Virus genome (UHGV): UHGV-0018639
Strand: one strand, 5' to 3'
DNA: 64,000 nt
From: a virus
In this document: in pieces, positions 38,221 to 62,191 of the stretch
How positions within the stretch are numbered: the stretch's first letter is position 1
Layout of the letters: each line of letters starts with the position of its first letter
Translations under genes and position numbers: made by a program
Notes under the pieces: generated by a model
Databases searched by the model: none
Told to the model about the DNA's origin: nothing
Seen by the model: the letters and a program-made list of their open reading frames with translations, nothing else

Positions 38221-38919
38221 ATGAACGAAGGACTTAGCGCTGGCGATATTCTCGCTTTGACACGTGATAATGATGATGGTATGAATAATGCTTGGAATAA
38301 CCCTTTTATTTATCTTGTTTGGCTGGCATTGTTAGGTGGTAATGGCGGACTCTTTGGCCGTCGTGACGACTGTGCAACGCAAGGTGCAATAACTCGTTCC
38401 GACTTGTTCGAAGGTTTCAGCAATCAAGATGTAAATGGCCAACTTCGCGGTATTACTAATGGTATATGTGATGGCTTCTATGCTATTAATAGTGGAATGA
38501 AAGACGGCTTCTATGGTAATCAAGCCGTAATCAAAGATGGCTTTTATTCCACTCAAGGCGCACTTGCTGAGAATAGGTTTCAACAGCAACAGTGCTGCTG
38601 CGAACTCAAGGGTGAAATTAAAAACATCGCAACCGAAGGCTATCGCAATACCTGCGAAATCACTACCGCAATTCATAATGAAGGCGAAGCAACTCGCGCT
38701 CTCATAAATGCTAATACAATGCAAGAACTCCGTGATAAGCTTGCTGATAAAGATAGAGATTTGCTTTATGCAAACTTCCAGAACTCTCAGCAGCTCCAGA
38801 ACGCATATTTAGTTGATACTTTGCGTCCAGTTAGCAGACCTGCATATATCACTTGCAGTCCATATCAATCTGTCAACTCTTGTGGCACATCCAGCTGCGG
38901 CTGTGGCTATGGCATTTGA
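38221..38919 (+). CDS. membrane-anchored cysteine-rich protein (one N-terminal TM segment NPFIYLVWLALLGGNGGLFG; C-terminus ..SCGTSSCGCGYGI); holin-like/lysis-associated or surface protein, unknown
   Basis: ORF track 232 aa with RBS aggagg. It has a hydrophobic Gly-rich helix and a CCC/CGCG cysteine cluster. Confidence 0.45.
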   Translation: MNEGLSAGDILALTRDNDDGMNNAWNNPFIYLVWLALLGGNGGLFGRRDDCATQGAITRSDLFEGFSNQDVNGQLRGITNGICDGFYAINSGMKDGFYGNQAVIKDGFYSTQGALAENRFQQQQCCCELKGEIKNIATEGYRNTCEITTAIHNEGEATRALINANTMQELRDKLADKDRDLLYANFQNSQQLQNAYLVDTLRPVSRPAYITCSPYQSVNSCGTSSCGCGYGI

Positions 38920-38963
38920 GCCAACTCACCGTGAGTACATATCCGTATCAGGGGTGAAACTAA

Positions 38964-39380
38964 ATGGTAGATAGTTATAATATTCAATCTCAAACTGTTG
39001 ATGTAAATGGCTTACTTACATTTCCTATCAATTCCATATTGACAGGCTGTACTGTTAGCCATACAGCAGGTAGCACGACATTCTCACTCAATAAGCCCGG
39101 ACTTTATTTTGTCTCCTTTAATGCGGTTGGCACTATATCTGGTGCTACTGCTGGCGCAATAACCGTTCAACTCCAGAATAATGGCACAGCAGTTCCGGGC
39201 GCGCTTAGCTCAGATACATCTGCATCAACAACTGACGTTCGCAATCTTTCTTTCACAAAAGTAATTCGAGTCAATCCATCTTGCTGTGCGGTTAATAATC
39301 AAGCTAATCTGACATTTGTAAATATAGGACTTGGTGCGATTTATACCAATGCTAACGTGGTAATTACCAAATTGGCATAA
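38964..39380 (+). CDS. BclA C-terminal-domain-like (C1q/TNF-like jelly-roll) protein
   Basis: 138 aa with a Thr/Ser/Gly/Asn-rich beta pattern (TFSLNKPGLYFVSFNAVGTISGATAGAITVQLQNNG...NLTFVNIGLGAIYTN). This is reminiscent of Bacillus/Clostridium exosporium BclA C-terminal domains. Recalled family resemblance, not a computed match. Confidence 0.4.
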   Translation: MVDSYNIQSQTVDVNGLLTFPINSILTGCTVSHTAGSTTFSLNKPGLYFVSFNAVGTISGATAGAITVQLQNNGTAVPGALSSDTSASTTDVRNLSFTKVIRVNPSCCAVNNQANLTFVNIGLGAIYTNANVVITKLA

Positions 39381-39730: not shown

Positions 39731-40468
39731 CCAAGAAATCATTTTTCGGTTTGGTGCACACTGTCGGACGGCATAGGTGCCAATTCCTATTGCATCAGCT
39801 TCGTCTTCACTAACAGATACGTCGTACCATTGTTTTGCTAGCTGACGCATTGATCCTTTTTTGTCGCTTCTTGATCGCCCTTTAACCCCGCACTCTTGAC
39901 GCCAGACCCCTGTGTGACATAAAGTGTAGGCAATTCCTAACTCAAAGCAACACTCAATCAAAATTCCTTGAAGCCACGCAAGCTGTTGAAAAACATCAAC
40001 ACCCATCATACGTTTGCCTTCGCTTTCATTTTGAAGTTGAATATTTTCCAATGCCACTAAGTCAGGCTGCCAATTATGTAACATATTGACGAGCCAAACC
40101 TTTACAGCATTACTCCGCGCTATTGTATCAGGTAATTGAGTTTGGTAGGTTCCATATTTAATAAGTTCTTTGTCGTCAAAAATTGAGAATCCTGTGATGT
40201 GTGTTGCTTGATCGAGTGCAAGCACACGAAACACATTCTTCTTTTTTGGAACAATTTTAGATGTAGTTGCTTCTGTCTTATATACATTAGCCTCGCAGGT
40301 AGGGCATATTCGTTTTGCGCGAAGCTTTTTCCAAGGGGCGAATACGGAGTGCCCTTCTGGGCACTCGAATCGCATTTCTGTTTCAAGATTTGTGTATGTG
40401 TCGCTTATAACTTTCCAGCCGTCTTGCTCTAATTCCTCTTTAATTGAATCTAATGAAATTTTTGCCAT
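39725..40468 (-). CDS. ruvC: RuvC-like Holliday junction resolvase
   Basis: 247 aa. It has the LALDQATHITGFSIFDD and DAIGIG motifs typical of phage RuvC-family resolvases. Confidence 0.65.
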   Translation of the reverse strand: MAKISLDSIKEELEQDGWKVISDTYTNLETEMRFECPEGHSVFAPWKKLRAKRICPTCEANVYKTEATTSKIVPKKKNVFRVLALDQATHITGFSIFDDKELIKYGTYQTQLPDTIARSNAVKVWLVNMLHNWQPDLVALENIQLQNESEGKRMMGVDVFQQLAWLQGILIECCFELGIAYTLCHTGVWRQECGVKGRSRSDKKGSMRQLAKQWYDVSVSEDEADAIGIGTYAVRQCAPNRKMISWE

Positions 40469-41409
40469 TAAAACTTTCCGGTAGAACCGAAACCGCCCTG
40501 ACGGTCTTCCGCTCCATAGAGAGTTATGTCATCAACTTCTTGCCAACTTATTTTGGGGACTTCGGCAAGAACTAACTGGGCGATTTTCTGACCTTTTGTT
40601 ATGTAGATAGGGGAGCCGTGAAGAATTGACGTGATGATAGGACGATGAGTTTCATCGTCAAACTCATAAGTTATATCTTTGATTGCAGGCTCATTGTTTT
40701 CAAGAATTATGCCAATCTCGTCGTGAAATCCTTCATCGACAGTGCCAATTGAATTGGCGATACGCATATGAGTGCGAGCTGATAGACCTGACTTAGCGCG
40801 CACCTGTATTTCATAACCTTTCGGCAAAGCCACTCTCAAACCAGTCGGGATTATCTTGATTTCGCCGGGGTCAATCGTATAATCATCGAGCGCAAACACA
40901 TCAAGGCCGCTGTCAGTTGTATGGGCATATTCAGGAAGCCTTATTTCACTAAACAGCCGCTGTACAGGCACACTCACAACACGACGTGCGATTCGCTCAT
41001 TTTCACCAAGCGCATTTGCAACTATACCAAGAATGGATTTGAAGAAATCTATTTTGACTTGAGAAATCTTACCATCCAGATTTGTTTGCAGTTTTTCCGC
41101 AATGTTGGCCAGCTCATCCATCATATCCTCAGCCGCGACGCCTTGAATTGAAAGGTTCTGCGCAATACCAAGCTGAATCTGCGGGTCTTTGAAGGCACTA
41201 TAAAAGTTCTCCAAAACGCCAGCCGCAACTACCATAAATTGCTCGTCATCAAGGCTCATCAAGCTAGAGAATGCCTTGACATACTCATCAGCCTCGTCTT
41301 CGTCTATTAAATTACCGAAGAAAAACGAAAAGGTGTCGCGCAATGTCTGTTCGATATCTTCTTCAGGCATTTCAATCGGCTTACCTGAAATATCTATTAT
41401 TTCACTCAT
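40468..41409 (-). CDS. dut: dUTPase domain protein (C-terminal dUTPase with motif RAKSGLS; N-terminal extra domain)
   Basis: 313 aa. The C-terminal half shows dUTPase motifs (SGLDV..., RSGLS-like, ILHGSPIYITKGQKIAQLVL). Confidence 0.6.
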   Translation of the reverse strand: MSEIIDISGKPIEMPEEDIEQTLRDTFSFFFGNLIDEDEADEYVKAFSSLMSLDDEQFMVVAAGVLENFYSAFKDPQIQLGIAQNLSIQGVAAEDMMDELANIAEKLQTNLDGKISQVKIDFFKSILGIVANALGENERIARRVVSVPVQRLFSEIRLPEYAHTTDSGLDVFALDDYTIDPGEIKIIPTGLRVALPKGYEIQVRAKSGLSARTHMRIANSIGTVDEGFHDEIGIILENNEPAIKDITYEFDDETHRPIITSILHGSPIYITKGQKIAQLVLAEVPKISWQEVDDITLYGAEDRQGGFGSTGKF

Positions 41410-41648
41410 TCAAGCCCCTCCCATATTGTGCTATATACCATAGTGCAAGAAACGACTTCGCAACTGTCAATTATTTCACCCTTGGACTTCTTATCCTTAT
41501 GGGTGTAGCCGCACTTGGTTATCTGATAACCCTTTTCGTGGGCTTCAGTGCGAAATTTTTCCATTAAATCTTTTGCCTCATTTTCACTTTCAACTCTATA
41601 TTCTTTGGTTTCCTTGAGCAGTATCATTTTATTTCTCCTTTTATCCAA
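41406..41648 (-). CDS. hypothetical protein
   Basis: ORF track 80 aa, coupled. Confidence 0.45.
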   Translation of the reverse strand: MDKRRNKMILLKETKEYRVESENEAKDLMEKFRTEAHEKGYQITKCGYTHKDKKSKGEIIDSCEVVSCTMVYSTIWEGLE

Positions 41649-41720: not shown

Positions 41721-42983
41721 TCAATCTTTATTTTTCAAAATCAGATTGAGAATAATACCAGCTATAAGAGCAAGTGCAGTAGCGGAAATTGAAAAATCAG
41801 CGCCACCAATCGCAAGGCCGCTTATGCCGAGAGAAAGAACCGCAGAGACAATTATCAAGTTCTTTTGCTCATTCAAATCAACTTGCTGCAGCATTTTTAC
41901 GCCACTACAAGCAATAAATCCATAGAGAACAATTGCCGCGCCAGCAAAAACGCAAGCCGGGATTGAACTAATAAAAGCTTGGACCGGCACAAAGAAGCCC
42001 ATAAGTATCAATATAAATGCGGCGGTTCCGCTCACTTTCGCAGAAGCAACTTTGCTAAATCCAACACAAGCAACGCCTTCACCATAAGAGCAAGCGCCGA
42101 GTCCGCCAAGTAAACCACTAACAGCATTTGCAAGTCCTTCACCAGCAAAGATACGGTTAAGGCCGGGCTTTTTGTAAAGATCAATACCAATTATATTACT
42201 GAGCGCGGCGTGATCGCTAAGAGCTTCCATCATTGCACTTATAGTGTAAGCAATAAACAAAATTATAAGAGGAATAAGCTGCGGCAGTTCAATAAATTTG
42301 CCCCAATCAACGTGAGAAACCGCGAGGTCAGGCAATGCGAAAAGGGCCATATTTTCAAAGACGTTAAAATCGACAACAGGAAAAATCTTCGTGATTGTCA
42401 GAATAATTGCATAAATATAACCAACTAAAGTGCCAAGCAGGAACGGGAGAATCTTTATAATTCCTTTCGCATAATGTGAAAAGAGTGCAATTGCTATCAT
42501 TGTGATGATAGCTACACTAACGCCCCACATATTAGTTTCGCCATTTATCTGAACATAAGTCAAGATAAAAGGCATAAGGTTAATACCTATAACAACCGTG
42601 ACTGCGCCGATCAATGACTTAGGAAAAATTTTATATATATTTTCAACAGGAACACGACTAAAGATAAGACCAAAAATTGTATAAACAACCCAAATTACAA
42701 AACAGCCAATAATTGCGCCTTCATAACCACAAGAAGTAAGTGCAATTATGATAGGAGCGACAAAAGCGCCAGAGTTTGAAATGAACATTGGGGATTGTCC
42801 TTTTGTTATAAGAATATAAGCCAGAGTACCACAGCCCGCGCCAACGAGTGCACCAGATACGGCGACACCACAAATATTAGCAATGAGCGTTGTGGCAACT
42901 ATAATTGACAGCATCATTTGTATTGAGAATAATAAAAGCTGCCCGAATGGAATTTTATCATCTAAAGAATATTTCATTACCAA
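41721..42983 (-). CDS. NCS2-family nucleobase permease (xanthine/uracil permease-like), ~12 TM
   Basis: 420 aa and very hydrophobic. The general architecture and Gly-rich motifs fit nucleobase:cation symporter-2. Confidence 0.6.
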   Translation of the reverse strand: MVMKYSLDDKIPFGQLLLFSIQMMLSIIVATTLIANICGVAVSGALVGAGCGTLAYILITKGQSPMFISNSGAFVAPIIIALTSCGYEGAIIGCFVIWVVYTIFGLIFSRVPVENIYKIFPKSLIGAVTVVIGINLMPFILTYVQINGETNMWGVSVAIITMIAIALFSHYAKGIIKILPFLLGTLVGYIYAIILTITKIFPVVDFNVFENMALFALPDLAVSHVDWGKFIELPQLIPLIILFIAYTISAMMEALSDHAALSNIIGIDLYKKPGLNRIFAGEGLANAVSGLLGGLGACSYGEGVACVGFSKVASAKVSGTAAFILILMGFFVPVQAFISSIPACVFAGAAIVLYGFIACSGVKMLQQVDLNEQKNLIIVSAVLSLGISGLAIGGADFSISATALALIAGIILNLILKNKD

Positions 42984-43825
42984 ATCACCTTATATTTTAT
43001 TTTATTTGTTTTAGCTATTTGCCTTTTTAGAGGGTCTTTTTCCGTCCAATTTTTTATAGCGTATTGGAAATATTTAGATGACTTGGCTTTTTCTTTCCAT
43101 TTTTTTAGTTGTTTTATATCTTCTGGATTCGATTCCTCAAAAAAATGGCCTCCATGAGTCCAATGCCTATTTAGTTCAATAAATAAATCTTCCGATACGA
43201 TATAAAAATCACAAAAGAAAGGATACCGTTTTTCATCTTTATAATTTCTCAAAACATTTTCTTTTCCATATTGTTGACAAAGTTGTAAATATAAATCTTC
43301 CTCTGGTTTGGAAATTCTAAAACTATTATTTTTTCTTTTTGTCTCAGCTTGTTTTTTTAGGGTTTTTGGCCAATCCATATTTTTTGTACGCCATTTATAA
43401 AAATTTTCTAAAGATCCATATTTTTGTATCATGGTTTTATTTCTTTGGGCTATATTATGATAATTATGAGGATCTGGCCATAAGATTTGATTTGTGGCTT
43501 TAGTTTTTTCTTTTATTTTCTCGGCTTTTGCTGGATTAGAAACCCCATATTTTTGATAACAAGTTTTTTCAGCTTTCTTTTTTACGGAATCTAATTGATG
43601 GACATTATCTACTCCGTATTTTTTTTGGCAAGTGGCTCTTCGTCTTTGGTTAGAAACTTTAATTTGAGTTGGATCACGGGGTTTCATTCCTCGCTGCCAT
43701 CCTTGCTCTAAGTATTTTTCTAGCTCTGATGATAGGACTCTTTTATTTATTTGCCCATTGTTGATAAAAAGCCCTGACGAATGAGATTGGCTCATTCGTG
43801 AGTCGCCTCCCAGTCCTGAAGCCAT
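42977..43825 (-). CDS. free-standing Vsr/DUF559-like PD-(D/E)xK endonuclease candidate with N-terminal tandem KYGV.N repeats
   Basis: 282 aa. It has repeats KKYGVDNVHQLDSVKKK / QKYGVSNPAKAEK and a C-terminal RYPFFCDFYIVSEDLFIELNRHWTHGGH. That motif resembles the Vsr-like motif of the terL intron endonuclease. Confidence 0.5.
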   Translation of the reverse strand: MASGLGGDSRMSQSHSSGLFINNGQINKRVLSSELEKYLEQGWQRGMKPRDPTQIKVSNQRRRATCQKKYGVDNVHQLDSVKKKAEKTCYQKYGVSNPAKAEKIKEKTKATNQILWPDPHNYHNIAQRNKTMIQKYGSLENFYKWRTKNMDWPKTLKKQAETKRKNNSFRISKPEEDLYLQLCQQYGKENVLRNYKDEKRYPFFCDFYIVSEDLFIELNRHWTHGGHFFEESNPEDIKQLKKWKEKAKSSKYFQYAIKNWTEKDPLKRQIAKTNKIKYKVIW

Positions 43826-44298
43826 TTTATTACGTCTTCAATATTATCTACTAAAACGCCGCCTTGCTTAATAAGACCAACAGTATAAAGATTCTGATAA
43901 CAGAACTGACTCTCACCAATATCAAAACGCATTATTTCGGCTTTAGCATCATTGTATGTGCGACTTGCCATACGACTATCAGTACAAATACCGATAATCA
44001 TTTTCTTGTCTCCGCGCGCAATTTTTTCGTGAAATTTGCCAATTTCTGCACTTGTTCCAGAAGGAATCACATCGCCATCAATGCAAGCAACAAGAACATC
44101 AGTTTCATCCAAGCGTGCATTATCTCCATCCGCAATCTGCCAAGAGCTTGCACATTTTGTTTTATCATTTATTTCTTTATTTTCCAGAGGATTATAGAGG
44201 TTGATTCCGGGAATAGCATCACGAATTTGTGCGCTCCATTTCTCATTTCTCATTCTATCTCCTTCACAAAAGATTGGCCCCGCCAAATAAACATTCAT
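43792..44298 (-). CDS. nucleoside 2-deoxyribosyltransferase family protein
   Basis: N-terminal MNVYLAGPIF and the DGDVIPSGTSAEIGKFHEKIARGDKKMIIG motif. ORF track 43792..44349; the likely start is the internal ATG at 44298. Confidence 0.6.
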   Translation of the reverse strand: MNVYLAGPIFCEGDRMRNEKWSAQIRDAIPGINLYNPLENKEINDKTKCASSWQIADGDNARLDETDVLVACIDGDVIPSGTSAEIGKFHEKIARGDKKMIIGICTDSRMASRTYNDAKAEIMRFDIGESQFCYQNLYTVGLIKQGGVLVDNIEDVIKWLQDWEATHE

Positions 44299-44696
44299 TC
44301 GTCTATATCCTCCAAATAAATTATTTTTTTCTCTAATTGCTTTGCCCATTCAATTTCACGTTTTGTGGATTCACCAATATAGCCATTCTTGTTTATTACA
44401 AAAATCATATCAGACATTGAAATTTTAGCTAGATGCATACGGTCGAGCTGTTGTTTTTCTTTCTCTGTCATTGTATCACCGTAATGCCCATAAATCTCAG
44501 GACTTAGGACAATATAGCCTGCAATTGTAAATTCTTTGCGATATTGCTGAAACAAAGGAAGAAACTTAGTACTGCCACACAATGTAATAATGGGAAACTC
44601 ATTTTGGTAGTTCCGCACTAAAATTTTATTAGTTATTTGTTGTCCCACATTCATCCTCGATTCCCATTGCTGCACTAGCTGCTTTATAGCCCTCAA
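44295..44696 (-). CDS. NDT-like (DUF4406-type) nucleoside deoxyribosyltransferase-fold protein
   Basis: 133 aa. ITLCGSTKF and VINKNGYIGESTKREIEWAKQLEKKIIYL match the NDT-fold pattern D.GT.fEiGyA...gKp. Confidence 0.45.
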   Translation of the reverse strand: MRAIKQLVQQWESRMNVGQQITNKILVRNYQNEFPIITLCGSTKFLPLFQQYRKEFTIAGYIVLSPEIYGHYGDTMTEKEKQQLDRMHLAKISMSDMIFVINKNGYIGESTKREIEWAKQLEKKIIYLEDIDE

Positions 44697-44883
44697 TATA
44701 GCCCATTGTATGTTCTTTATTCAGCCTTTCTTGAATATTCTTATAAACTTGCGGGAATAAACTTGCTATCACAAACTCAAAAGAAAGTTCAAGCTCATCT
44801 GTGTTTCCATTATACGTTTTTTCTACTTGCTCAATTACTCGTTTTATGTGCATGAATCGAACCTTATCTAAATTTTCGTCCAT
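44629..44883 (-). CDS. hypothetical protein
   Basis: ORF track 84 aa. Confidence 0.4.
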   Translation of the reverse strand: MDENLDKVRFMHIKRVIEQVEKTYNGNTDELELSFEFVIASLFPQVYKNIQERLNKEHTMGYIEGYKAASAAMGIEDECGTTNN

Positions 44884-45461
44884 AATTTCTCCTTTCCATA
44901 ATGTAGGGTTAAAGCGCCAAATGAATTACCTAATGCAGCAACTAAAATTTTTCGGAAGGAAATTGGTATAGAGCTTGCTGCTGAATAAAACATATTAGCA
45001 ATGCAGTGATCAAAACCACAATAAACAAATAAAAATACAGGGAGCATTATAGCAAGAAGAGACTTTGTTCGTTTGAATCCTTCAACTGCGCAATAGACAC
45101 ATACTCCGCACAAGTAGGAGCTAAAGAGTAAATTGGCATATGACATTTCTGCTTTTGAAGAAGCAACTAAATCGGCCAAAAATGGATTTACCCACCACAC
45201 CAATAAACCCAATAGTGCGGCGCCAGCGAAATTTGCAATAAGCATTATACTTAAATCAATAAGATCTGCGCCATCACCTACATAAGCAATGCGGCCAGTG
45301 TAAAGCGGAAGGCCAAGTTCTAAAATTGAGACAAGCCCAAAGCTAAATAACAATGCACCCAATATCTTATTTTGGCTAATGAGGTTGGCATATCCGCCAA
45401 CCCCAATTAGCATACCTGCAAAGAAAGCAGGAATTATATTATAGCTATCTTTTTTTATCAT
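44868..45461 (-). CDS. formate/nitrite transporter (FNT)-family-like membrane channel (short, 197 aa)
   Basis: Hydrophobic, with GFDHCIANMFY matching the conserved FNT motif (GFEHSIANMF in FocA). Confidence 0.45.
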   Translation of the reverse strand: MIKKDSYNIIPAFFAGMLIGVGGYANLISQNKILGALLFSFGLVSILELGLPLYTGRIAYVGDGADLIDLSIMLIANFAGAALLGLLVWWVNPFLADLVASSKAEMSYANLLFSSYLCGVCVYCAVEGFKRTKSLLAIMLPVFLFVYCGFDHCIANMFYSAASSIPISFRKILVAALGNSFGALTLHYGKEKLWTKI

Positions 45462-45492: not shown

Positions 45493-46002
45493 TCAAATTT
45501 TGAGTTCACAAATGTGCGCTTTTTCCAAAGTTTGGTGAACATCTATAAGGCGCTGATTACGAGAGCCACGGAATGGCAAAGTTAAATCACGCTGCTCAAG
45601 AATAAAAGGGCCATCTACCACAACATCGCAAAGTTGGAGTGTTGTTGAAATGCGGCGAGGGGGATTGAAATCCTCCCAGTCCAAGTGGTAGCCAGTATAG
45701 AGCCAAATGTCTTTATTAGGAAATTTTTCTTTGATTTCTCTTAACAACTTATAGATAGTATTGTTGTTTTGTGGCTCAAGTGGATGACCGCCAGAAAGAG
45801 TGATTCCTTTTATCCAAGGCTTTGAAAGAGCGTCAAATAGTTCTTCTTTCGCGGTGTCATCAAAAAGTTTACCTGCGCAGAAATCCCAAGTTTCAGGATT
45901 ATGACATTCTTTGCAATGGAGAGAACATCCTGAAACCCAAAGAACGACACGCACGCCAAGACCATTTGCGATGTCGCATTTTGTTATTTTGATATAATTC
46001 AT
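45493..46002 (-). CDS. nrdG: anaerobic ribonucleotide reductase activating protein (radical SAM)
   Basis: The GCSLHCKECHN CxxxCxxC motif. The start MNYIKITKCDIANG at 46002 overlaps the nrdD stop. Confidence 0.75.
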   Translation of the reverse strand: MNYIKITKCDIANGLGVRVVLWVSGCSLHCKECHNPETWDFCAGKLFDDTAKEELFDALSKPWIKGITLSGGHPLEPQNNNTIYKLLREIKEKFPNKDIWLYTGYHLDWEDFNPPRRISTTLQLCDVVVDGPFILEQRDLTLPFRGSRNQRLIDVHQTLEKAHICELKI

Positions 46003-46979
46003 TATGATTCTCCCAAATGTAAGACACGCTCTTTTATTTCTTGGGTACGGCCAAAATTCCAAAAATTAGAGCCAATATAGCCGCAAGTACGACGTGCAAC
46101 GTTCAAGGTAGAATGATCACGGTTGCCGCAATTTGGACAATACCACTCCATATTATCATCAATGAGAATTTCGCCATCGAAGCCACATTTCTGACAGTAG
46201 TCGCTCTTTGTATTAAGTTCAGCATACATTATGTTATCATAAATAAACCTATAAAGCTCTAAGACGGCAGGAATATTGTTTTGTAAATTAGGAACCTCTA
46301 CATAGCTTATTGCACCGCCCGGACTAAGTTTTTGAAACTCAGCCTCGAAAGCAAGTTTATCAAAAGCATTGATTTCTTCAAAAACAGGAACATGATAACT
46401 ATTTGTAATATAATTACGGTCATGCCCATCGAGTTTAATAAATATATCATTGCCAAATCGCTGTTTTAGGCAACGCGCAAACTTATATGTTGTACTTTCA
46501 ATAGGAGCACCATAGAGAGAATAATCAATTTTTTCAGCAGCTTTCCATTCAGCACACTTCTCATTTAAACGTGCCATTACTTCAAGAGCAAAAGGTTTCC
46601 CATCAGTCTGTGTATGGCTATGCCTTGTCATATATTTTACGCACTCATAAAGACCAGCATATCCAAGTGAAATTGTTGAATAGCCATTATGAAGCAATTT
46701 ATCAAGCCTCTCACCTTTTTCAAGACGAGCGAGTGCGCCATTTTGCCAAAGAATAGGGGCAACATCACTAAGGGTTCCCTCAAGACGCTTATGTCTAAGT
46801 TGAAGTGCTTTGTGGCATAATTCAGTACGCTCTTCAAATAGCTGCCAAAACTTATCAATATTACCGCCTGAACTAAAAGCTAAATCTGGTAAACTAATTG
46901 TAACAACACCTTGGTTAAAACGACCATAGTATTTTGGGTTATTATTTTCATCAACATAAGGAGTTAGGAAGCTCCTGCA
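46002..46979 (-). CDS. nrdD: anaerobic ribonucleoside-triphosphate reductase NrdD, exon 2 (glycyl-radical C-terminal part: CRSFL..., RRTCGYIG..GRTQEIKERV)
   Basis: ORF track 46002..46982. Exon 2 starts at 46979 (UGC AGG..) after terminal G46980. Confidence 0.8.
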   Translation of the reverse strand, partial: CRSFLTPYVDENNNPKYYGRFNQGVVTISLPDLAFSSGGNIDKFWQLFEERTELCHKALQLRHKRLEGTLSDVAPILWQNGALARLEKGERLDKLLHNGYSTISLGYAGLYECVKYMTRHSHTQTDGKPFALEVMARLNEKCAEWKAAEKIDYSLYGAPIESTTYKFARCLKQRFGNDIFIKLDGHDRNYITNSYHVPVFEEINAFDKLAFEAEFQKLSPGGAISYVEVPNLQNNIPAVLELYRFIYDNIMYAELNTKSDYCQKCGFDGEILIDDNMEWYCPNCGNRDHSTLNVARRTCGYIGSNFWNFGRTQEIKERVLHLGES

Positions 46980-47748
46980 CATATTATCCCATATCCCTAT
47001 GGGTACTGACTATATCTTCATTCCACTAAAAAGTGGAGTTGTCTTCCGCTTCGAGTGAGTGCCTATCTCTCACCCTACTCCCTTACATTCATCAGGGATA
47101 GTCGATACACTTCATTCATCATAATAAAAATTATAAGGAGTATTATTTGTCCGTTGCTGTAAAAGAAAGGTCCTGATACGATGTCTATCAATACCAGTTT
47201 TACGTTCGCATTCTCTCATTGACTTATAGTGAAAACGTTCTTTTGTCTCTTTATTTTCAGCAATTATCCAAATTCCACGCCCTTTATGCGGATTTATATA
47301 ATTGTTTTCCTGATAAGCCTTTCTAATATTTTCGCTGTGAGATACGGCCCGCAAATTAGAAAGTTCATTATGTGATTTATTTCCATCAATATGGTCTACA
47401 ACTGTACAATTATCAAGAAAAACTTCCGCCATAAGGCGATGAACGCGAGTTCGTATTCGATTGCCACCAAGACAAAGAACTACGTGTTGATACATATCAA
47501 TGCCAATATATGGACTAATTATTCTTCCCGTTTTAAAATTGATTATTTGAGCATCTTCATTTATACCAAATTGATTATTCAAACTTGGAATGGGCATAAA
47601 TTCTTTCATTATCTCACCTCCTTTTCATATTTATGATATATGATGAATTTTAGCACGGCCTCATCTGTTCTAGACCTAGCCGTTAGCCGCATTTGCGACA
47701 CCCGCGGGCGCGGTTCAAAAGATTTTATATGAGCTGCAGTTTTCACTT
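46980..47748 (-). mobile_element. group I intron (769 nt) in nrdD with an HNH homing endonuclease ORF
   Basis: On the - strand the exon 1 end ..ugu aug ggU(47749) joins ugc agg(46979..) to give CMG|CRSFL (the conserved NrdD MGCRSFL). P1 is uaugggU:Gcucaua (rc of ~47720-47726). P10 is cugca:ugcag. R-like gtatcgactatcc and S aagatatagtcag (rc of 46991-47003). P9 hairpin and terminal G46980. Confidence 0.8.
47112..47609 (-). CDS. HNH homing endonuclease (VDHIDGNKSHNELSNLRAVSHSEN)
   Basis: 165 aa with RBS aaggagg upstream. It lies inside the nrdD intron. Confidence 0.8.
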   Translation of the reverse strand: MKEFMPIPSLNNQFGINEDAQIINFKTGRIISPYIGIDMYQHVVLCLGGNRIRTRVHRLMAEVFLDNCTVVDHIDGNKSHNELSNLRAVSHSENIRKAYQENNYINPHKGRGIWIIAENKETKERFHYKSMRECERKTGIDRHRIRTFLLQQRTNNTPYNFYYDE

Positions 47749-48927
47749 ACCCATACAAGGATAACAACGACCCTTACCAGTTTTGTCTTTTTTTAATTCT
47801 AACATCATTTTTTCAGAAATAATATCAGGGACAAGACGCTTTGCTGTACATTTTGCTGCAAGTTCTGTTAAGTAAAAATACTTATCGCCCGGCTGTAAAT
47901 TATCAGGTTCAAGGACATAAAGTAACTTAGGAAATGCAGGCGTAATATAAACGCCTTTTTCATTCTTGAAACCTAAAATACGTTGTTTAATAAACTCCTC
48001 TATCAGCATTGCTAATTCATTCTTATATTCTTCTGTCTCGTTTAAATACATAAATACAGAAAGAAATGGTGCTTGACCATTTGTTGTTGTCATTGAATTG
48101 ACTTGATAGTTGAAAGTCTGAACAGCATCAACAACTTCTTTTTTTGTATCAAGTTGCGCATACTTATGCGCATTCTCATCGTCAAATCCCCAATCTTTAT
48201 ACTTCTTGAGATAAGCTTCATAAGAGCTTCTAACAAAAGGTGCAAGATGTGTAAGAGTAATAGTAGCACCACCATATGAAGAAGAAGCGACGCCAAGAAT
48301 TACTTGCGTTGCAATCGTAGAAGCTGTCAGAATTCTATGCGGCTTTTCAATTTTAACGTTATTAATTACAGTACCATTTTGAAGGACATCCTCTAAGTTA
48401 ATAAGATCGCAATTATGGAGGGTCTTCTGGCCGAAATAATCAATATCGTGGAAATGTATAATACCTTTCTCATGCGCGTCCACAATCTCAGGGGGAAGAA
48501 GAAATCGTTTAGAGATGTCTTCGCTAACAATACCGGCCATATAATCACGCTGTGTCGTTACAAGGTCGGCATTTTTATTTGAATTTTCAGCGTTCCAATA
48601 ATCACTTGTACCACTGATTAGTTCAAGTAAATCTTTGTCTGTTGTATTGCCTTCGCGCGCGAGTCTATGTTTATACCTGTATTCAACATAGCGCTCAGCC
48701 ACGTCTTTTCTTGAACTAGCCATAAGCCGCTCAACTACTAAGTCTTGAATTTCTTCAACGCTCAAATCTCTATTAAGCTTTTCTATTTGAGTAGCCACCA
48801 TTCGTGCCTTATTTTTGGCATAAGATGTTTCACGTCCATCTACTTCCAAAAAGGCTTTGAGAATGGCGACTCTAATTTTCTCTTTATCAAATGGAACCGT
48901 AGTTCCATCACGTTTTATGACGTACAA
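47749..48927 (-). CDS. nrdD: NrdD exon 1 (ATP-cone VIKRDGTTVPFDKEKI and N-terminal catalytic part; 393 codons)
   Basis: ORF track 47743..48927. The last 2 codons plus the stop of that ORF are intron-encoded. Confidence 0.8.
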
Positions 48928-50267: not shown

Positions 50268-51759
50268 TTACTCACCCCTTACATGAGTTGTTATACGGCC
50301 ATATTCATCAATATCTGTTATTTCTTCAACCAGATGGTATGGGGTTCGGGAATATTTCTTCGCCAGAAATCCATCATCCTTTCTAATGCCACATACGATT
50401 ATCTTGTTGCCACGTGAGAAAGTGCTGCGACTGATAACGTGTTTCTTCCCATCAGGCCCTCTCTCCGAAATTTGCTTATCATAATTAGCAAATGCTTCGC
50501 CAAAAATTTTGACCTGAACAACGCCATCTTTTGTCAATAACGAAACAATTTTCTTTGCCTTATCCCTATCCAATACAGTTCCGCAAATACGATGTATTCT
50601 ATAAATCGGAACCGGCGCGCTATCACTATCCTTGCCGCGCGGTTTGAAGTAAGTCTCAACATCAGGCTGCTCTTTCAGTTTGAAGAAGTTTGAAAAGCCT
50701 TGCGCACGTTCATCAACATTTTGAAGTTCATGTTCGTGGAAATAACATGAAACGCTATCCATCTCCCACTTGCTTATTGAACCAAGACAATATTTATTCC
50801 AGATATCTCGCGTTAATCGCTCATTCACGGTATCTAGCAACTCATCATGATTTTCTTTTATCCACTTGCGGACATTATCCATATATTTCTTATAAATTTT
50901 GTCCCAAGCCGTGATGTTAATTTTGAAGCCACTTTCAGTTTCATTGCTTGCGCTCAAACAGTCAAGTGAAAAATTCTTATCAAGGAAATTCAATGCGATA
51001 TTATCTATGCCATAGAATGATGTGTCTAACTTCATTTTCTTGAGATACTTTGTGAAGTTATAAACACGACGCTCAAAATCAAGATTTTCGGGAATCAACC
51101 CAAAGTTTATCAACATTGCCATATTCTGAAGAGTGATACGTTTCTTTGTGTCGCTAATCAGGCTGACATATTCGCGCATTAAATCTACTCTATCACCAAA
51201 TGCATCAAAAGCTCCGCATTTTATGAGGTTTATCATTTGTGGCTTGTTGATTTTTACTTTGGAAAGAAAATCGGAGATTGAGTTATAGGGTCGATTTGCG
51301 ATTATGGATTTAACGATGTCTTCGCCGACTTTGACGATACCGCTCATACCATAACGAATTGTTGAATTTTCAACATCAGGAGAGAAAGTAAAAGTAGATT
51401 TGTTGATATCTGGAGGAGAAACCGAAATACCGGCCATTCGCATTTTACCGATTGCTGATGCAATTTTGCCATAGTTAGTCGTTTTGACTTTTTTCTTTTT
51501 CTTTTTTACATCAATTTTTTCTTCTTCGTCTTCATCTTCGTCGTCATCTTCGGTATCATCAACAAATTCTTCAATACAGTTGTTATAACTATATTCAATA
51601 ATATCTTCTGGCGTTTCGTCATCGTTCTCATCATTTGATTCATTGCCGCCGCTATCGCTAATCAAACACGCGCAATTCCAAAAAATTGTTGGAAAACGAT
51701 ATGCAAGATTCATTTCCTGCAAAGCCACAAGCGAGTAGGAAAGAGTATGTGCTCGACAA
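50268..51759 (-). CDS. dnaE: DNA polymerase III alpha (DnaE-type) exon 2 (..CRAHTLSYSLVALQEMNLAYRFP.., acidic insert, HhH GISVSPPDINKS, OB domain)
   Basis: ORF track 50268..51728. The frame is open upstream to 51759. Exon 2 begins UUGU.. after terminal G51760. The joined GYSF|CRAHTLSYSLV matches DnaE GYGFNKSHSAAYALV. Confidence 0.8.
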
Positions 51760-52862
51760 CTTACCGCACATAGTTTCTTATGCCAGATTTACTCTGTTGC
51801 GGTCTGGACTATACCATCAATTTCATTGTTTCCAATGAAAAAGTCCTTATTATAGTCTCTGAACGTTTTTCTTATCTCAATATATTTTCTATTCATACCA
51901 AAAGGCTTATTATAAACTAGAGCGATTAGTTTTAGGATATTGAACTGATTAGCGGTTTCAACTCTATATAAGCTATCTTCAGTTTTTCTTATATGTAAAT
52001 CTTCCATAAAGAAATTTTCTACTAAGATTTTTTCAATCCATTTGATAAATTCTTCAGATGCTGATACTATATAAAATTGAGCACCGCCATAAGAAGTTTT
52101 ACTGACACACCCATCACCGTCTATTATACCACGAATAATGTAAGGCAAATATCGCTTTTCTTGCTCATACAATTGCGGCGCCGGTATAATATATGTTTTA
52201 TTCTTTATTATACCATAACGGGCAGCCTCAGCTTGAAGACCCGGCCTATTTATCAATACCCTATATCGAGTTTGCTTTCCAGCTTGAGGATAGGCCTTAT
52301 AAGTTATTCCAATTCCTTTAGCTATAAAAGCAATAACATCTTCGTCCACCATATCCAACCCTAAGCCATCTCGATCGCTCAATAGATATCCATCCGTAAG
52401 CAGTAGCCCGATTAGATATGCATCGAACGGACTTTTGATTTCAGATAACGAATAGGTATATCCTCGACGATTATCTTGCGCTTGCCGTATAATTTCTTGA
52501 TATTCATCTGGATAATACTTTTTTACCTTGTCGGTTATAGACTTCTTTGTTTTATAACCATATCGACCCATTAGCTCTGAAACCGATGCCCCATTCTTAT
52601 ATTCTTCAACTAATTTTAGTTCATCTTCTTTTGATATTTTCTGATAACCCATAGTATATCCCTCCTAAGAATAAGTAGCCCTATTCAAATAGAAATACAC
52701 TAAAATAAGAAACTTCGCTGCGGATTATCCAATTCTAAATGATTTTACTATACCCTCTCTCTTTCTGAGAGGCCGCGATATTATTGCTAATATCGTTTAG
52801 TTATTTAGACTCTAAGGAAGTCCCCGCAATTTCAAGGATTTATACTCGTCTTGTATTAGTCA
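51760..52862 (-). mobile_element. group I intron (1103 nt) in dnaE with a LAGLIDADG homing endonuclease ORF
   Basis: - strand: an 8-bp P1 uacucguU(52870-52863):Gacgagua (rc of 52848-52841). P10 is uugu:acaa. P element aaauugcgggga (rc of 52821-52832). Q element aauccgcagc (rc of ~52716-52725). S gguauaguccag (rc of 51803-51814). P9 hairpin and terminal G51760. Confidence 0.8.
51789..52652 (-). CDS. LAGLIDADG homing endonuclease (two motifs LIGLLLTDGYL and IRGIIDGDGCV) with N-terminal HTH
   Basis: 287 aa with RBS aggaggg. Its C-terminal end overlaps the intron S/P9 region. Confidence 0.8.
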   Translation of the reverse strand: MGYQKISKEDELKLVEEYKNGASVSELMGRYGYKTKKSITDKVKKYYPDEYQEIIRQAQDNRRGYTYSLSEIKSPFDAYLIGLLLTDGYLLSDRDGLGLDMVDEDVIAFIAKGIGITYKAYPQAGKQTRYRVLINRPGLQAEAARYGIIKNKTYIIPAPQLYEQEKRYLPYIIRGIIDGDGCVSKTSYGGAQFYIVSASEEFIKWIEKILVENFFMEDLHIRKTEDSLYRVETANQFNILKLIALVYNKPFGMNRKYIEIRKTFRDYNKDFFIGNNEIDGIVQTATE

Positions 52863-61118: not shown

Positions 61119-62191
61119 CACATTTTGTTATCGTAAAGCTTTTTATCTTTACTTCTTACTCTTGATTTTGAGCAAGTTCAGCATATCTTTTTTCCTCTTC
61201 TCCAGAGGAATAGAGTCTCGTGGATTTTATATCATAAAAGTTTTTCATTGCTTGATATTTTCTTTCCATATAAATAGAATTGGGCACATACAGAATCTCA
61301 AAAAGTCTTAAGATAGTGTCTTTTTTATAAACTTGTATTGTATAAAAATGGTCGCCTTGACTGAGCGTCGCTGTGCTGGTCGAAAGAGAGGTAATAATAC
61401 CATATTTATTCAGAAGAACTTGCCGCATCCATTCAATAACTTCTTTTCTTGCTCCACAAATATACCAATTATAATGATATTTTTTATAATCAGTCCAAAT
61501 ACATCCATCTCCATCAAAATATCCTCGAATATAAGAGATAAAATATTGTTCATCAAGAAAAGTCGGCGGTGTTAGAGTAAAAGTTTTACGAGGTATTATT
61601 CCATAATGGGCTAAATCTTGTTTGATAGTATGACTACAAACTCTTAGCCGGCTATACTCACAACCTGAATTATTTGTATAATGCTGAATAGGTCCCTCAT
61701 ATTTTAGTTCTTCTTTTATCTTATACAATATTTCTTCATCGGATCTTTGAATATCTATTGTAAAATGATTCGTATCTTTTGATACTCCGCCATCGGAAGC
61801 TAAAAATCCAAGAATATAAGCCATATTATGAGATTGTATCTTGAAATAATCGTCATTAACATTATAAGCTCGACATTCTTTTGCAGCTTCTTGCCGATTA
61901 CGAACCTTTACTCCCCATTTTTTCAAGTATCTTTGAATTGTCGCTCCTGAAGCTCCTCCAACATCTCGGCCAATAGCATTTACGCCTCTTTTTAGAACTG
62001 TATAATTATAAATTATAAATTCTTTTTGTTCATCTGTAAATGAAATAGATTTACCCACTCTGGGTTCCTCCTTTTATGTTTATCAATCTATGCGTTGCGC
62101 GTGTCGGAACTTTTACACTCCGACTTCCGCTCTGATTCCCATCTCAGGGTTCCAGATTTTTACTCTAATTTAGATATTTGTTTCCAAATAA
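61119..62191 (-). mobile_element. intervening sequence (probable group I intron, boundaries approximate) in the Sak4-like gene carrying a LAGLIDADG homing endonuclease ORF
   Basis: The N- and C-terminal halves of a Sak4-like ATPase flank the homing endonuclease gene. U/G-rule-compatible splice pairs exist: U62192 with G61119, or U62191 with G61121. The core shows P/Q-like variants aaucuggaac and gaaucagagcgg. No canonical R/S was found and P1 was not convincingly identified. Confidence 0.45.
61156..62058 (-). CDS. LAGLIDADG homing endonuclease (LGFLASDGGV and IRGYFDGDGCI) with N-terminal HTH
   Basis: 300 aa with RBS aaaaggagg. It is in the same frame as downstream exon 2 but separated by its own stop. 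Confidence 0.8.
   Translation of the reverse strand: MGKSISFTDEQKEFIIYNYTVLKRGVNAIGRDVGGASGATIQRYLKKWGVKVRNRQEAAKECRAYNVNDDYFKIQSHNMAYILGFLASDGGVSKDTNHFTIDIQRSDEEILYKIKEELKYEGPIQHYTNNSGCEYSRLRVCSHTIKQDLAHYGIIPRKTFTLTPPTFLDEQYFISYIRGYFDGDGCIWTDYKKYHYNWYICGARKEVIEWMRQVLLNKYGIITSLSTSTATLSQGDHFYTIQVYKKDTILRLFEILYVPNSIYMERKYQAMKNFYDIKSTRLYSSGEEEKRYAELAQNQE

Follow-up and report, generated by a model that had tools for sequence, protein, structure and literature searches.

UHGV-0018639 is a viral genome, of which a stretch of 64,000 nt (the window) was analyzed. In one minus-strand run, the window encodes an enzyme of the nucleoside 2-deoxyribosyltransferase (NDT) family and a permease of the NCS2/NAT family. 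We read them as a salvage module. Free bases would be imported and joined to deoxyribose by transglycosylation, and the products would feed phage DNA synthesis alongside the phage anaerobic ribonucleotide reductase (RNR) proteins NrdD and NrdG (NrdDG). We put the probability of this reading, which was drawn from sequence, at about 0.55.

The pairing of a phage NAT permease with NDT-fold enzymes is conserved throughout a clade of large gut phages that is widespread and includes TAG-recoded members from human and pig metagenomes. This pairing is new, as is a phage-borne minimal FNT family. The protein families themselves are already known, phage NDTs are commonly annotated, and auxiliary nucleotide metabolism is known from phages. 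Full-text searches of a paper library turned up neither a phage NCS2-NDT pairing nor a phage FNT gene beside nrdD. To our knowledge, solute transporters are uncommon in phages, and we know of none shown to import nucleobases. The pair probably makes a real contribution to the DNA precursor supply of these uncultured phages in their anaerobic, nucleobase-rich habitat, because strong purifying selection maintains it in a widespread clade.

The four main genes are as follows.

41721..42977, minus strand: NCS2/NAT-family nucleobase:cation symporter, 418 amino acids (aa), by PF00860 and UraA alignment; a divergent phage-resident lineage.
43792..44298, minus strand: nucleoside 2-deoxyribosyltransferase-family enzyme, 168 aa, beginning MNVYLAGPIF; PF05014.
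44295..44654, minus strand: small NDT-fold protein, 119 aa, with the motif ITLCGSTKF ... GYIGESTKREIEWA.
44868..45461, minus strand: predicted compact FNT-family anion channel, 197 aa, by PF01226 and fold match.

The gene inventory was made from a listing of open reading frames (ORFs) and from profile searches against Pfam, PHROG, and NCBIfam. Every element named in the first-pass annotation was present at its coordinates on the minus strand. The domain searches confirmed its family assignments (NCS2, NDT, FNT, and an endonuclease) and the flanking dUTPase and nrdDG genes.

The gene pairing was examined with a profile scan of IMG/VR. It returned 31 loci, with permeases 60 to 94% identical, on contigs of up to 240 kb. 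Neighbors were typed by tblastn, and 29 of the loci had sequence upstream of the permease. An NDT gene lies directly upstream of the NCS2 gene in 25 of these 29. Two of the remaining four (L037 and L042) have a divergent NDT-like neighbor that starts ...GYLGGDIMxFGS and matches PF05014 below threshold. The order in distant relatives is DnaE, guanylate kinase, NrdD, (GIY-YIG), NrdG, small NDT-like gene, NDT, small ORF, NCS2, and convergent tail genes. The pairing persists there although the polymerase is just 39 to 45% identical. The permease (60 to 68%) and NDT (40 to 61%) are the best-conserved proteins of the neighborhood, and NrdG is 36 to 41% identical. The small NDT-like gene lies beside the pair in 19 loci. 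Genes for NrdDG are present in 19 to 20 of the 31 loci, and the NrdD beside the pair is of three NCBIfam types: PRK09263-like (window), PRK07111-like (L011), and PRK08271-like (L008). Seven loci with an NDT neighbor (L043 to L048 and L053) have no NrdDG genes within 8 kb.

The four main genes are under strong purifying selection. Against four close relatives, the ratio of nonsynonymous to synonymous substitution rates (dN/dS) was 0.06 to 0.07 for the permease, 0.03 to 0.18 for NDT, 0.01 to 0.11 for the small NDT-like gene, and 0.10 to 0.19 for FNT (0.01 to 0.19 for the four together).

Some relatives carry further nucleoside genes. L042 (4270-4884), L008, and L045 encode an NT5C deoxyribonucleotidase, near nrdD. 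The gene that directly follows the permease in L037 (9243-10442) encodes a Bmp/PnrA-like substrate-binding lipoprotein; characterized members of this family bind nucleosides. The AAA_33 kinase of L036 matches dNK weakly, below threshold. With NDT-NCS2 adjacency in 25 to 27 of 29 viral loci, these genes much strengthen the earlier suggestion that importer and deoxyribosyltransferase act together. Its companion claim, that the route would be independent of host RNR, is not well framed, as 19 to 20 of the 31 loci carry the module with phage NrdDG. In about two thirds of loci the module lies downstream of the phage NrdDG genes, and here it lies upstream of the dUTPase gene. It therefore looks to complement de novo deoxynucleoside triphosphate (dNTP) synthesis and not to replace it.

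The salvage reading would work as follows. The permease would be inserted in the host membrane during infection and would import a free nucleobase by proton symport. The adjacent NDT, using its conserved Glu as nucleophile, would move a 2'-deoxyribosyl group from a donor onto the imported base. The donors may be deoxynucleosides, and possibly deoxynucleoside monophosphates (dNMPs), from host DNA breakdown. This transfer would rebalance the deoxynucleoside pool toward the needs of an AT-rich phage. The product would be phosphorylated by host kinases, or by phage kinases in some relatives. The small NDT-fold protein may act on N-glycosidic bonds as a second enzyme or be a partner subunit, with other base or phosphate specificity, or it may be a hydrolase. 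The compact FNT, added after nrdG in one sub-lineage alone, would conduct formate for the E. coli/T4-type NrdD. Three of the proteins are small and expressible, which makes the hypothesis directly testable.

A cellular counterpart is purine salvage in Borrelia burgdorferi. It also couples base and nucleoside uptake to an NDT (BB0426), which redistributes deoxyribose for DNA precursors (PMC2764106). Its BmpD is a nucleoside-binding protein (PMC7093131), and the lipoprotein of phage L037 is of the same Bmp/PnrA family. The Borrelia system compensates for an absent RNR, whereas the phage genes are viral, paired, and mostly beside their own class III RNR. The phage NDT also lacks the Asp six residues before the catalytic Glu (E-6), and the phage permease is a divergent UraA-like NAT and no characterized purine permease.

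The permease matches PF00860 (Xan_ur_permease) with an E value of 3.6e-54 and 184.4 bits against a cutoff of 27, over profile positions 1 to 383 of 389. Its start is an ATG preceded by an AAGGTGA Shine-Dalgarno sequence; the longest-ORF start is an upstream artifact. Residues 8 to 417 align to UraA 9 to 407, and the match to structures 3qe7 and 8omz is full length (E 1e-41 to 1e-48). It had been described as a 12-transmembrane permease, but UraA-type NCS2 proteins have 14 transmembrane segments. Like the E. coli uracil:H+ symporter UraA (3qe7, 5xls, 8omz), it aligns over all 14 and keeps the Glu of transmembrane segment (TMS) 8 and of TMS10. Identity is about 30%, with Met for the TMS1 His, Gly for the TMS10 Asn, and a TMS8 7 residues longer. 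Bacterial uraA pairs with upp, whereas the partner of the phage permease is NDT. Given that no solved homologue is nearer than UraA and that the TMS10 Glu is retained, a pyrimidine (for example, uracil or thymine) is the best guess for its substrate.

The permease belongs to an old lineage that resides in phages, and it was not acquired recently from a host. Homologues 67 to 72% identical occur in large phage-like contigs and not in bacterial chromosomes. HMMER, run exhaustively against 1.84 billion cluster representatives, returned only 119 clusters at E<=1e-30. The next cluster, 48% identical, is on contigs of 150 to 167 kb, and the first organism-named clusters (Borkfalkiaceae/Christensenellaceae and a Spirochaetaceae metagenome-assembled genome [MAG]) are just 36 to 37% identical; the call of an old phage lineage was made on these two results. 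In GenBank phage records, tblastn with the permease gave matches of 24 to 33% identity, mostly in apparent host-derived segments (e.g., pyrP beside VT2-Sakai).

The NDT matches PF05014 with 47.1 bits against a cutoff of 28.8. The best PDB match is the Enterococcus faecalis NDT (7m5h, E 6e-24), and it also matches 7o62. It has the N-terminal Y-x-A-G-P-x-F motif (YLAGPIF), and E85 in SAEIG aligns with the catalytic Glu of both structures. It shares PF05014, this motif, and the Glu in x-E-x-G with bacterial NDTs, including those of Lactobacillus (1f8x, 1s2d, 7m5h, 7o62, 8rh3, 6evs). In an alignment of six phage sequences, D74, D76, P79, G81, T82, and E85 are invariant. An invariant P-x-G-T precedes the Glu, and the D74-G-D76 motif and the Thr at E-3 set the phage clade apart. 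The start ATG overlaps the upstream stop as ATGA and has a GGAGGA Shine-Dalgarno sequence; here too the longest-ORF start is an upstream artifact. In the contig L008 (4536-6005), assigned by binning to a Clostridia MAG, NDT forms the N-terminal portion of a 489-aa ORF; this ORF reaches the permease start and has a further C-terminal region of about 320 aa.

Several observations weigh against the salvage reading. The permease scores below the uracil-permease equivalog NF007995 (203.9 bits against a cutoff of 477) and below the NCS2 model TIGR00801 (196.5 against 291.8). It does not have the canonical NAT motifs, which are Gln-His in TMS1, E-x-x-G-D/H/G in TMS8, and [Q/E/P]-N-x-G-x-x-x-x-T-[G/R/K] in TMS10 (PMC5972032). 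Its TMS1 has Q22-M in place of Q-H. Its TMS8 reads E253-A-L-S-D257, with Ser for Gly and the Glu kept. Its TMS10 reads E302-G-V-A-C-V-G-F-S-K, with Gly for Asn, Ala for Gly, and Ser for Thr, and with Glu in the first position as in UraA. All three motifs are non-canonical, yet they are conserved very strongly inside the phage clade, and the protein appears to be a non-canonical NAT branch. With these motifs lost and the scores below cutoff, the substrate, and even nucleobase transport itself, is not secure.

The NDT gives a second such point. It had been called canonical, which fits the catalytic Glu and the N-terminal motif but not position E-6. Pro79 stands there in 6 of 6 aligned phage NDTs, whereas the E. 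faecalis and D. psychrophila enzymes have Asp. We take this Asp to be Asp92 in Lactobacillus leichmannii numbering, a ligand of the 5'-OH. Changing it reportedly converts NDTs into phosphodeoxyribosyltransferases. Because the Asp is replaced by Pro, the donor could be a nucleotide instead of a plain deoxynucleoside; we treat this as a lead. Third, neither a deoxynucleotidase nor a deoxynucleoside kinase is encoded in the window, which is about half of an estimated 130-kb genome, so the pathway depends on host enzymes.

The small NDT-fold protein had been called DUF4406-like. This holds at the level of fold, but the match to DUF4406 (PF14359) misses the Pfam threshold (19.3 bits against 22, E 0.0015). 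The protein adopts a flavodoxin-like fold of the NDT type, in which the catalytic position has a conserved acidic residue. The profile of its family had no significant sequence match in PDB, and fold comparison alone worked. An invariant S-T stands ahead of its Glu, and a CGS motif stands at the N terminus. This motif resembles what we take to be the phosphate-binding loop of DNPH1. The gene appears to be translationally coupled to NDT in this phage, as the two are joined by an ATGA overlap with a strong Shine-Dalgarno sequence. Its longest-ORF start is also an upstream artifact. In cellular contigs, the surroundings of this family are heterogeneous and do not point to a function; in one contig, an unrelated PF00860 gene lies at a distance of 2 kb.

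Some members of the small NDT-like family (P0141, P0142, P0144, P0146, P0160, and P0176 in alignment A3) have an extra N-terminal Cys-rich domain with the pattern ...GYCCCK...C.C..F......GFCHCG.YYK. It presumably resembles the CxC motifs of ferredoxin-thioredoxin-reductase-like proteins. This domain hints at redox or metal regulation.

The FNT protein matches PF01226 with an E value of 8.8e-22 and 78.1 bits against a cutoff of 34.6. Its AlphaFold model, made with 18 homologues, has a predicted local distance difference test (pLDDT) score of 84.7 and a predicted template modeling (pTM) score of 0.82. Foldseek matched the model to HSC, FocA, NirC, PfFNT, and LciA with a probability of 1.00 and query-normalized TM-scores of 0.75 to 0.84; the structures matched are 3tdo, 3klz, 4fc4, and 6vqq. 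T55 (LPLYTG), K103, H152 (GFDHCIANMF), and N179 are invariant across 18 short-FNT sequences. These are the pore Thr, the vestibule Lys, the central His (GF[DE]HCIA), and the C-terminal GN motif of the short-FNT family. The pore Thr and His correspond to ...LFTS... and ...GFEHCIANMF in Vibrio FocA (3kly).

The protein is apparently a complete but compact channel protomer, judging from the model. It shares its fold, pore Thr, His, and vestibule Lys with FocA, HSC, and NirC (3kly, 3tdo, 4fc4). It has 197 aa compared with their 250 to 285, lacks the N-terminal cytoplasmic helix, and has trimmed loops. Family members have 172 to 197 aa. It scores below the NCBIfam subfamily cutoffs (51.7 against 290 bits for TIGR04060 and 51 against 232 for TIGR00790). 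Its gene lies beside nrdG and not beside pflB.

The first-pass annotation had made this channel part of the salvage cluster. It is confined to the sub-lineage of the window, with just four close relatives having it among the 31 NCS2 loci, and its distant homologues are in unrelated contexts. It is a lineage-specific add-on and not part of the conserved module. Most plausibly it would conduct formate for the E. coli-type NrdD, because it lies directly after nrdG, the NrdD is of that type, and characterized enzymes of that type use formate. This link accounts for its position better than a role in nucleobase salvage would. The characterized E. coli, L. lactis, and T4 enzymes use formate as reductant (PMC4493059). 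Four findings weaken the formate link. The channel occurs in this sub-lineage alone, L003 combines it with another NrdD body, a window-like NrdD (67 to 73% identical) occurs without FNT in L031 and L050, and the phage replication regions that hold the distant short-FNT homologues have no nrdD close by.

Those short FNTs, of 182 to 196 aa and 31 to 39% identical, are in other phage-like contigs (L005:3853-4401, L007:66-647, L015:4677-5243, L016:1772-2362). Their neighbors are RecA and clamp-loader genes, RlaP and CCA-adding enzyme genes, DnaE, and TnpB-like genes. Co-occurrence of FNT with one NrdD subtype was considered and rejected, as L003 has FNT with a PRK07111-like NrdD and L031 and L050 have the window-like NrdD without FNT.

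The remaining genes of the run and its insertions are as follows.

40468..41409, minus strand: dUTPase, 313 aa; PF00692 (E 4.6e-14) and PHROG 135 (E 2.4e-46).
41406..41648, minus strand: 80-aa ORF between NCS2 and dUTPase; no family match.
42977..43825, minus strand: free-standing homing-endonuclease-like gene; DUF7487, PF24308 (E 7e-14, 52.7 bits against 27), and PHROG 3339/12131 (homing endonuclease).
44629..44883, minus strand: 84-aa ORF, conserved in close relatives (90 to 99% identical in four).
45493..46002, minus strand: nrdG, activase of the anaerobic ribonucleotide reductase; TIGR02491 (173.7 bits against 126.1) and PF13353 (E 2e-45).
46002..46979, minus strand: nrdD exon 2, C-terminal half including the glycyl-radical region; NF006732 positions 385 to 707.
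46980..47748, minus strand: nrdD insertion, 769 nt, with a 165-aa ORF (47112-47609); nrdD is intact in relatives.
47749..48927, minus strand: nrdD exon 1, ATP-cone and N-terminal half; NF006732 positions 3 to 384.

Four other accounts of the module were weighed, as was an origin in host DNA. The first keeps the genes and changes the chemistry. The NDT-fold pair would carry out (phospho)deoxyribosyl base exchange on host-derived dNMPs with the permease-imported base, and FNT would supply formate to the viral RNR. Host G/C deoxynucleotides would become A/T deoxynucleotides without kinases or RNR, or an imported non-canonical base would enter the dNTP pool. We consider this improbable, at roughly one chance in seven. 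If true, this would be the first case of a virus encoding a transporter-enzyme pair for DNA precursor remodeling. DmtZ, which together with DutZ is known from the PurZ0 phages Ghobes and Wayne, is a precedent for phage NDT-fold enzymes that exchange bases on dNMPs. There too, an NDT-superfamily enzyme near a Dut-family enzyme remodels the pool by base exchange (PMC12884076). DmtZ acts on dAMP and Z base in the PurZ pathway and has no transporter (PMC12884076), whereas no PurZ or other Z-genome gene was seen in the window. The window proteins resemble the Ghobes protein at fold level only (BFVD match, E 1.5e-3).

A slightly less probable account puts the permease in ribonucleotide supply. Imported uracil would be converted to UMP by host Upp and then to UTP and CTP, which NrdD would reduce to dUTP and dCTP. 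The dUTPase would yield dUMP and thymidylate synthase dTMP, and NDT would be a side activity. The gene order nrdD-nrdG ... NCS2-dUTPase in this lineage fits, the nearest solved permease homologue is UraA, and class III RNRs reduce triphosphates (PMC4493059). This account leaves unexplained why an NDT, and no phosphoribosyltransferase, is the invariant neighbor of the permease, including in the seven loci without nrdDG within 8 kb. The dUTPase adjacency it uses is also not conserved in most distant relatives.

An unusual DNA base is also unlikely, by a little more. The divergent permease would import the base, and one or both NDT-fold enzymes would install it on deoxyribose or, by base exchange on a dNMP, on deoxyribose 5-phosphate (dR5P). 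Phage DmtZ, an NDT-like enzyme paired with a Dut-like enzyme, hydrolyzes dAMP and transfers dR5P to Z base, 2-aminoadenine (PMC12884076). The strongly conserved non-canonical motifs of the permease, the P-x-G-T of an NDT without the E-6 Asp, and the S-T and CGS motifs of the small protein also fit. The first-pass annotation had raised this route, but no DNA modification or base synthesis gene was found in the 64-kb window, about half of the estimated genome, so it stays just a possibility. The base would need to occur in the gut lumen, and the best NDT matches are ordinary bacterial NDTs. The dUTPase is ordinary by profile, and the NT5C, PnrA-like, and weak-dNK kinase genes of relatives point to ordinary salvage.

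Pool sanitation is more doubtful still. One or both NDT-fold proteins would be N-glycosidases of the DNPH1/MilB type that destroy a host (deoxy)nucleoside monophosphate, and the permease would recapture or dispose of the base. The nearby dUTPase is another pool-curating enzyme, and phage DmtZ has hydrolase activity (PMC12884076). Hydrolysis of dNMPs, however, would waste deoxyribose when the phage needs it. The tight NDT-NCS2 pairing and the NT5C and PnrA-like genes of relatives fit scavenging. UraA-type NCS2 proteins are proton-symport importers, which fits supply over disposal.

An origin in host DNA flanking a prophage, or in assembly contamination, is refuted by synteny. Although most tblastn matches to the permease in GenBank phage records appear host derived, phage modules flank the cluster on both sides, its GC content is uniform and equal to that of the surroundings, the gene order recurs in many viral contigs of 100 to 240 kb, homing endonucleases are interspersed, and the nearest named bacterial permeases are as distant as given above.

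The cluster is phage DNA, as the first-pass annotation had it. It lies between the structural and replication modules of the phage. The structural module is on the plus strand at 1 to 39.4 kb (terminase, portal, tape-measure, and tail proteins). The replication module is on the minus strand at 39.7 to 64 kb (DnaE-type polymerase, DnaB helicase, RecJ-like DHH protein, and AAA_24 protein). The cluster genes are co-oriented on the minus strand in the ORF listing and profile searches. Their order in transcription is nrdD exon 1, insertion, nrdD exon 2, nrdG, FNT, 84-aa ORF, 119-aa NDT-fold gene, NDT, DUF7487 gene, NCS2 permease, 80-aa ORF, dUTPase, and RuvC-like resolvase. Four IMG/VR viral contigs of 75 to 132 kb have the same order. 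Their cluster proteins are 78 to 100% identical, with the nrdD of L003 as the sole exception.

That nrdD (L003:5217-7463) is a mosaic. Its first ~90 residues (ATP-cone) match those of the window but for one substitution. The remainder is of another NrdD type (PRK07111-like, about 27 to 42% identical), and the flanking genes are >90% identical. The catalytic body was replaced by recombination.

The DUF7487 gene, which the first-pass annotation had placed among the cluster genes, is present there as a mobile insertion and not as a component. It is missing from 4 of 4 close relatives (L001 to L004), in which the NDT stop abuts the NCS2 start. From the family match and the presence or absence at a precise site in collinear genomes, it is a free-standing homing endonuclease with no part in the pathway. 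Synonymous divergence (dS) of the permease is 0.48 to 0.75 against L024 to L026 and L052; that of NDT, the small NDT-like gene, and FNT is 0.07 to 0.34 (2 to 5 times lower). The raised permease value possibly comes from a co-conversion tract that arrived with the adjacent homing endonuclease.

After splicing, NrdD scores 861.6 bits against a cutoff of 657 for the E. coli/T4-type equivalog NF006732, and its junction is identical to the uninterrupted L001 gene. The insertion site is ...CYPCMG|CRSFL..., where the nrdD of relatives is uninterrupted. The 5' exon ends GGU and the insert ends ...AUG. The insertion looks like a group I intron, a call made because of the exon junction and boundary nucleotides only. 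Rfam, searched at E<=0.1 over 39 to 56 kb, gave no match to a group I intron or to any other RNA family. The 165-aa ORF had no NCBIfam match and is taken to be an HNH-type homing endonuclease. T4 nrdD/sunY likewise has a group I intron, and the site of the insertion lies around what we take, from T4 NrdD, to be the finger-loop cysteine.

At least four homing-endonuclease-type elements lie within 25 kb. The DnaE-type polymerase is split into ORFs of 834 and 486 aa by an insertion (51729-52855, minus strand) with a LAGLIDADG ORF at 51789-52652. The L003 polymerase is one uninterrupted gene of 1228 aa; about 10 residues at the split junction of the window are unaccounted for. A third homing-endonuclease-type ORF (LAGLIDADG_3, 300 aa) is in the replication module at 61156-62058 on the minus strand.

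The longest-ORF start of nrdG is an upstream artifact. At its N terminus, the dUTPase is extended by about 140 aa (40978-41409, minus strand) that have no Pfam match. The 80-aa ORF is 96 to 99% identical in close relatives and 38 to 54% in some distant ones. The 84-aa ORF had no match in Pfam or PHROG, and its dN/dS was 0.09 to 0.40.

DNA comparison with GenBank phage records found no close relative, just short patches of 65 to 77%. Scans for promoters and terminators found numbers equal or close to the shuffled expectation. A PADLOC scan found no defense-family match, so a defense or counter-defense reading is unsupported. A Clostridia-MAG contig with NrdD-NrdG-NDT-NCS2 was found in an alignment-based scan, and an earlier scan of genome contigs had no match. 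This contig itself appears phage derived, so no host was assigned.

TAG is the terminator of just 2 of 51 ORFs in the window, and no window gene appears TAG interrupted. In L009, L011, and L012, TAG codons occur in frame within nrdD, nrdG, and the permease gene (e.g., L009:946-3192 and L009:6001-7257). The TAG at permease codon 20 in these distant relatives is, by position offset, the family-invariant Gln22. These phages are therefore read as using TAG for Gln (code 15).

The divergent NAT, NDT, and minimal FNT proteins are a resource for work on transport and biocatalysis. The module may also offer a way to study how phages drive the flux of nucleobases in the gut.

The end of the structural module (38221-39380, plus strand) encodes a Cys-rich 232-aa protein and a 138-aa protein. 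The latter falls slightly short of the cutoff for the BclA C-terminal (C1q-like) domain (36.4 bits against 38). The two are possibly tail-fiber tip or decoration proteins.

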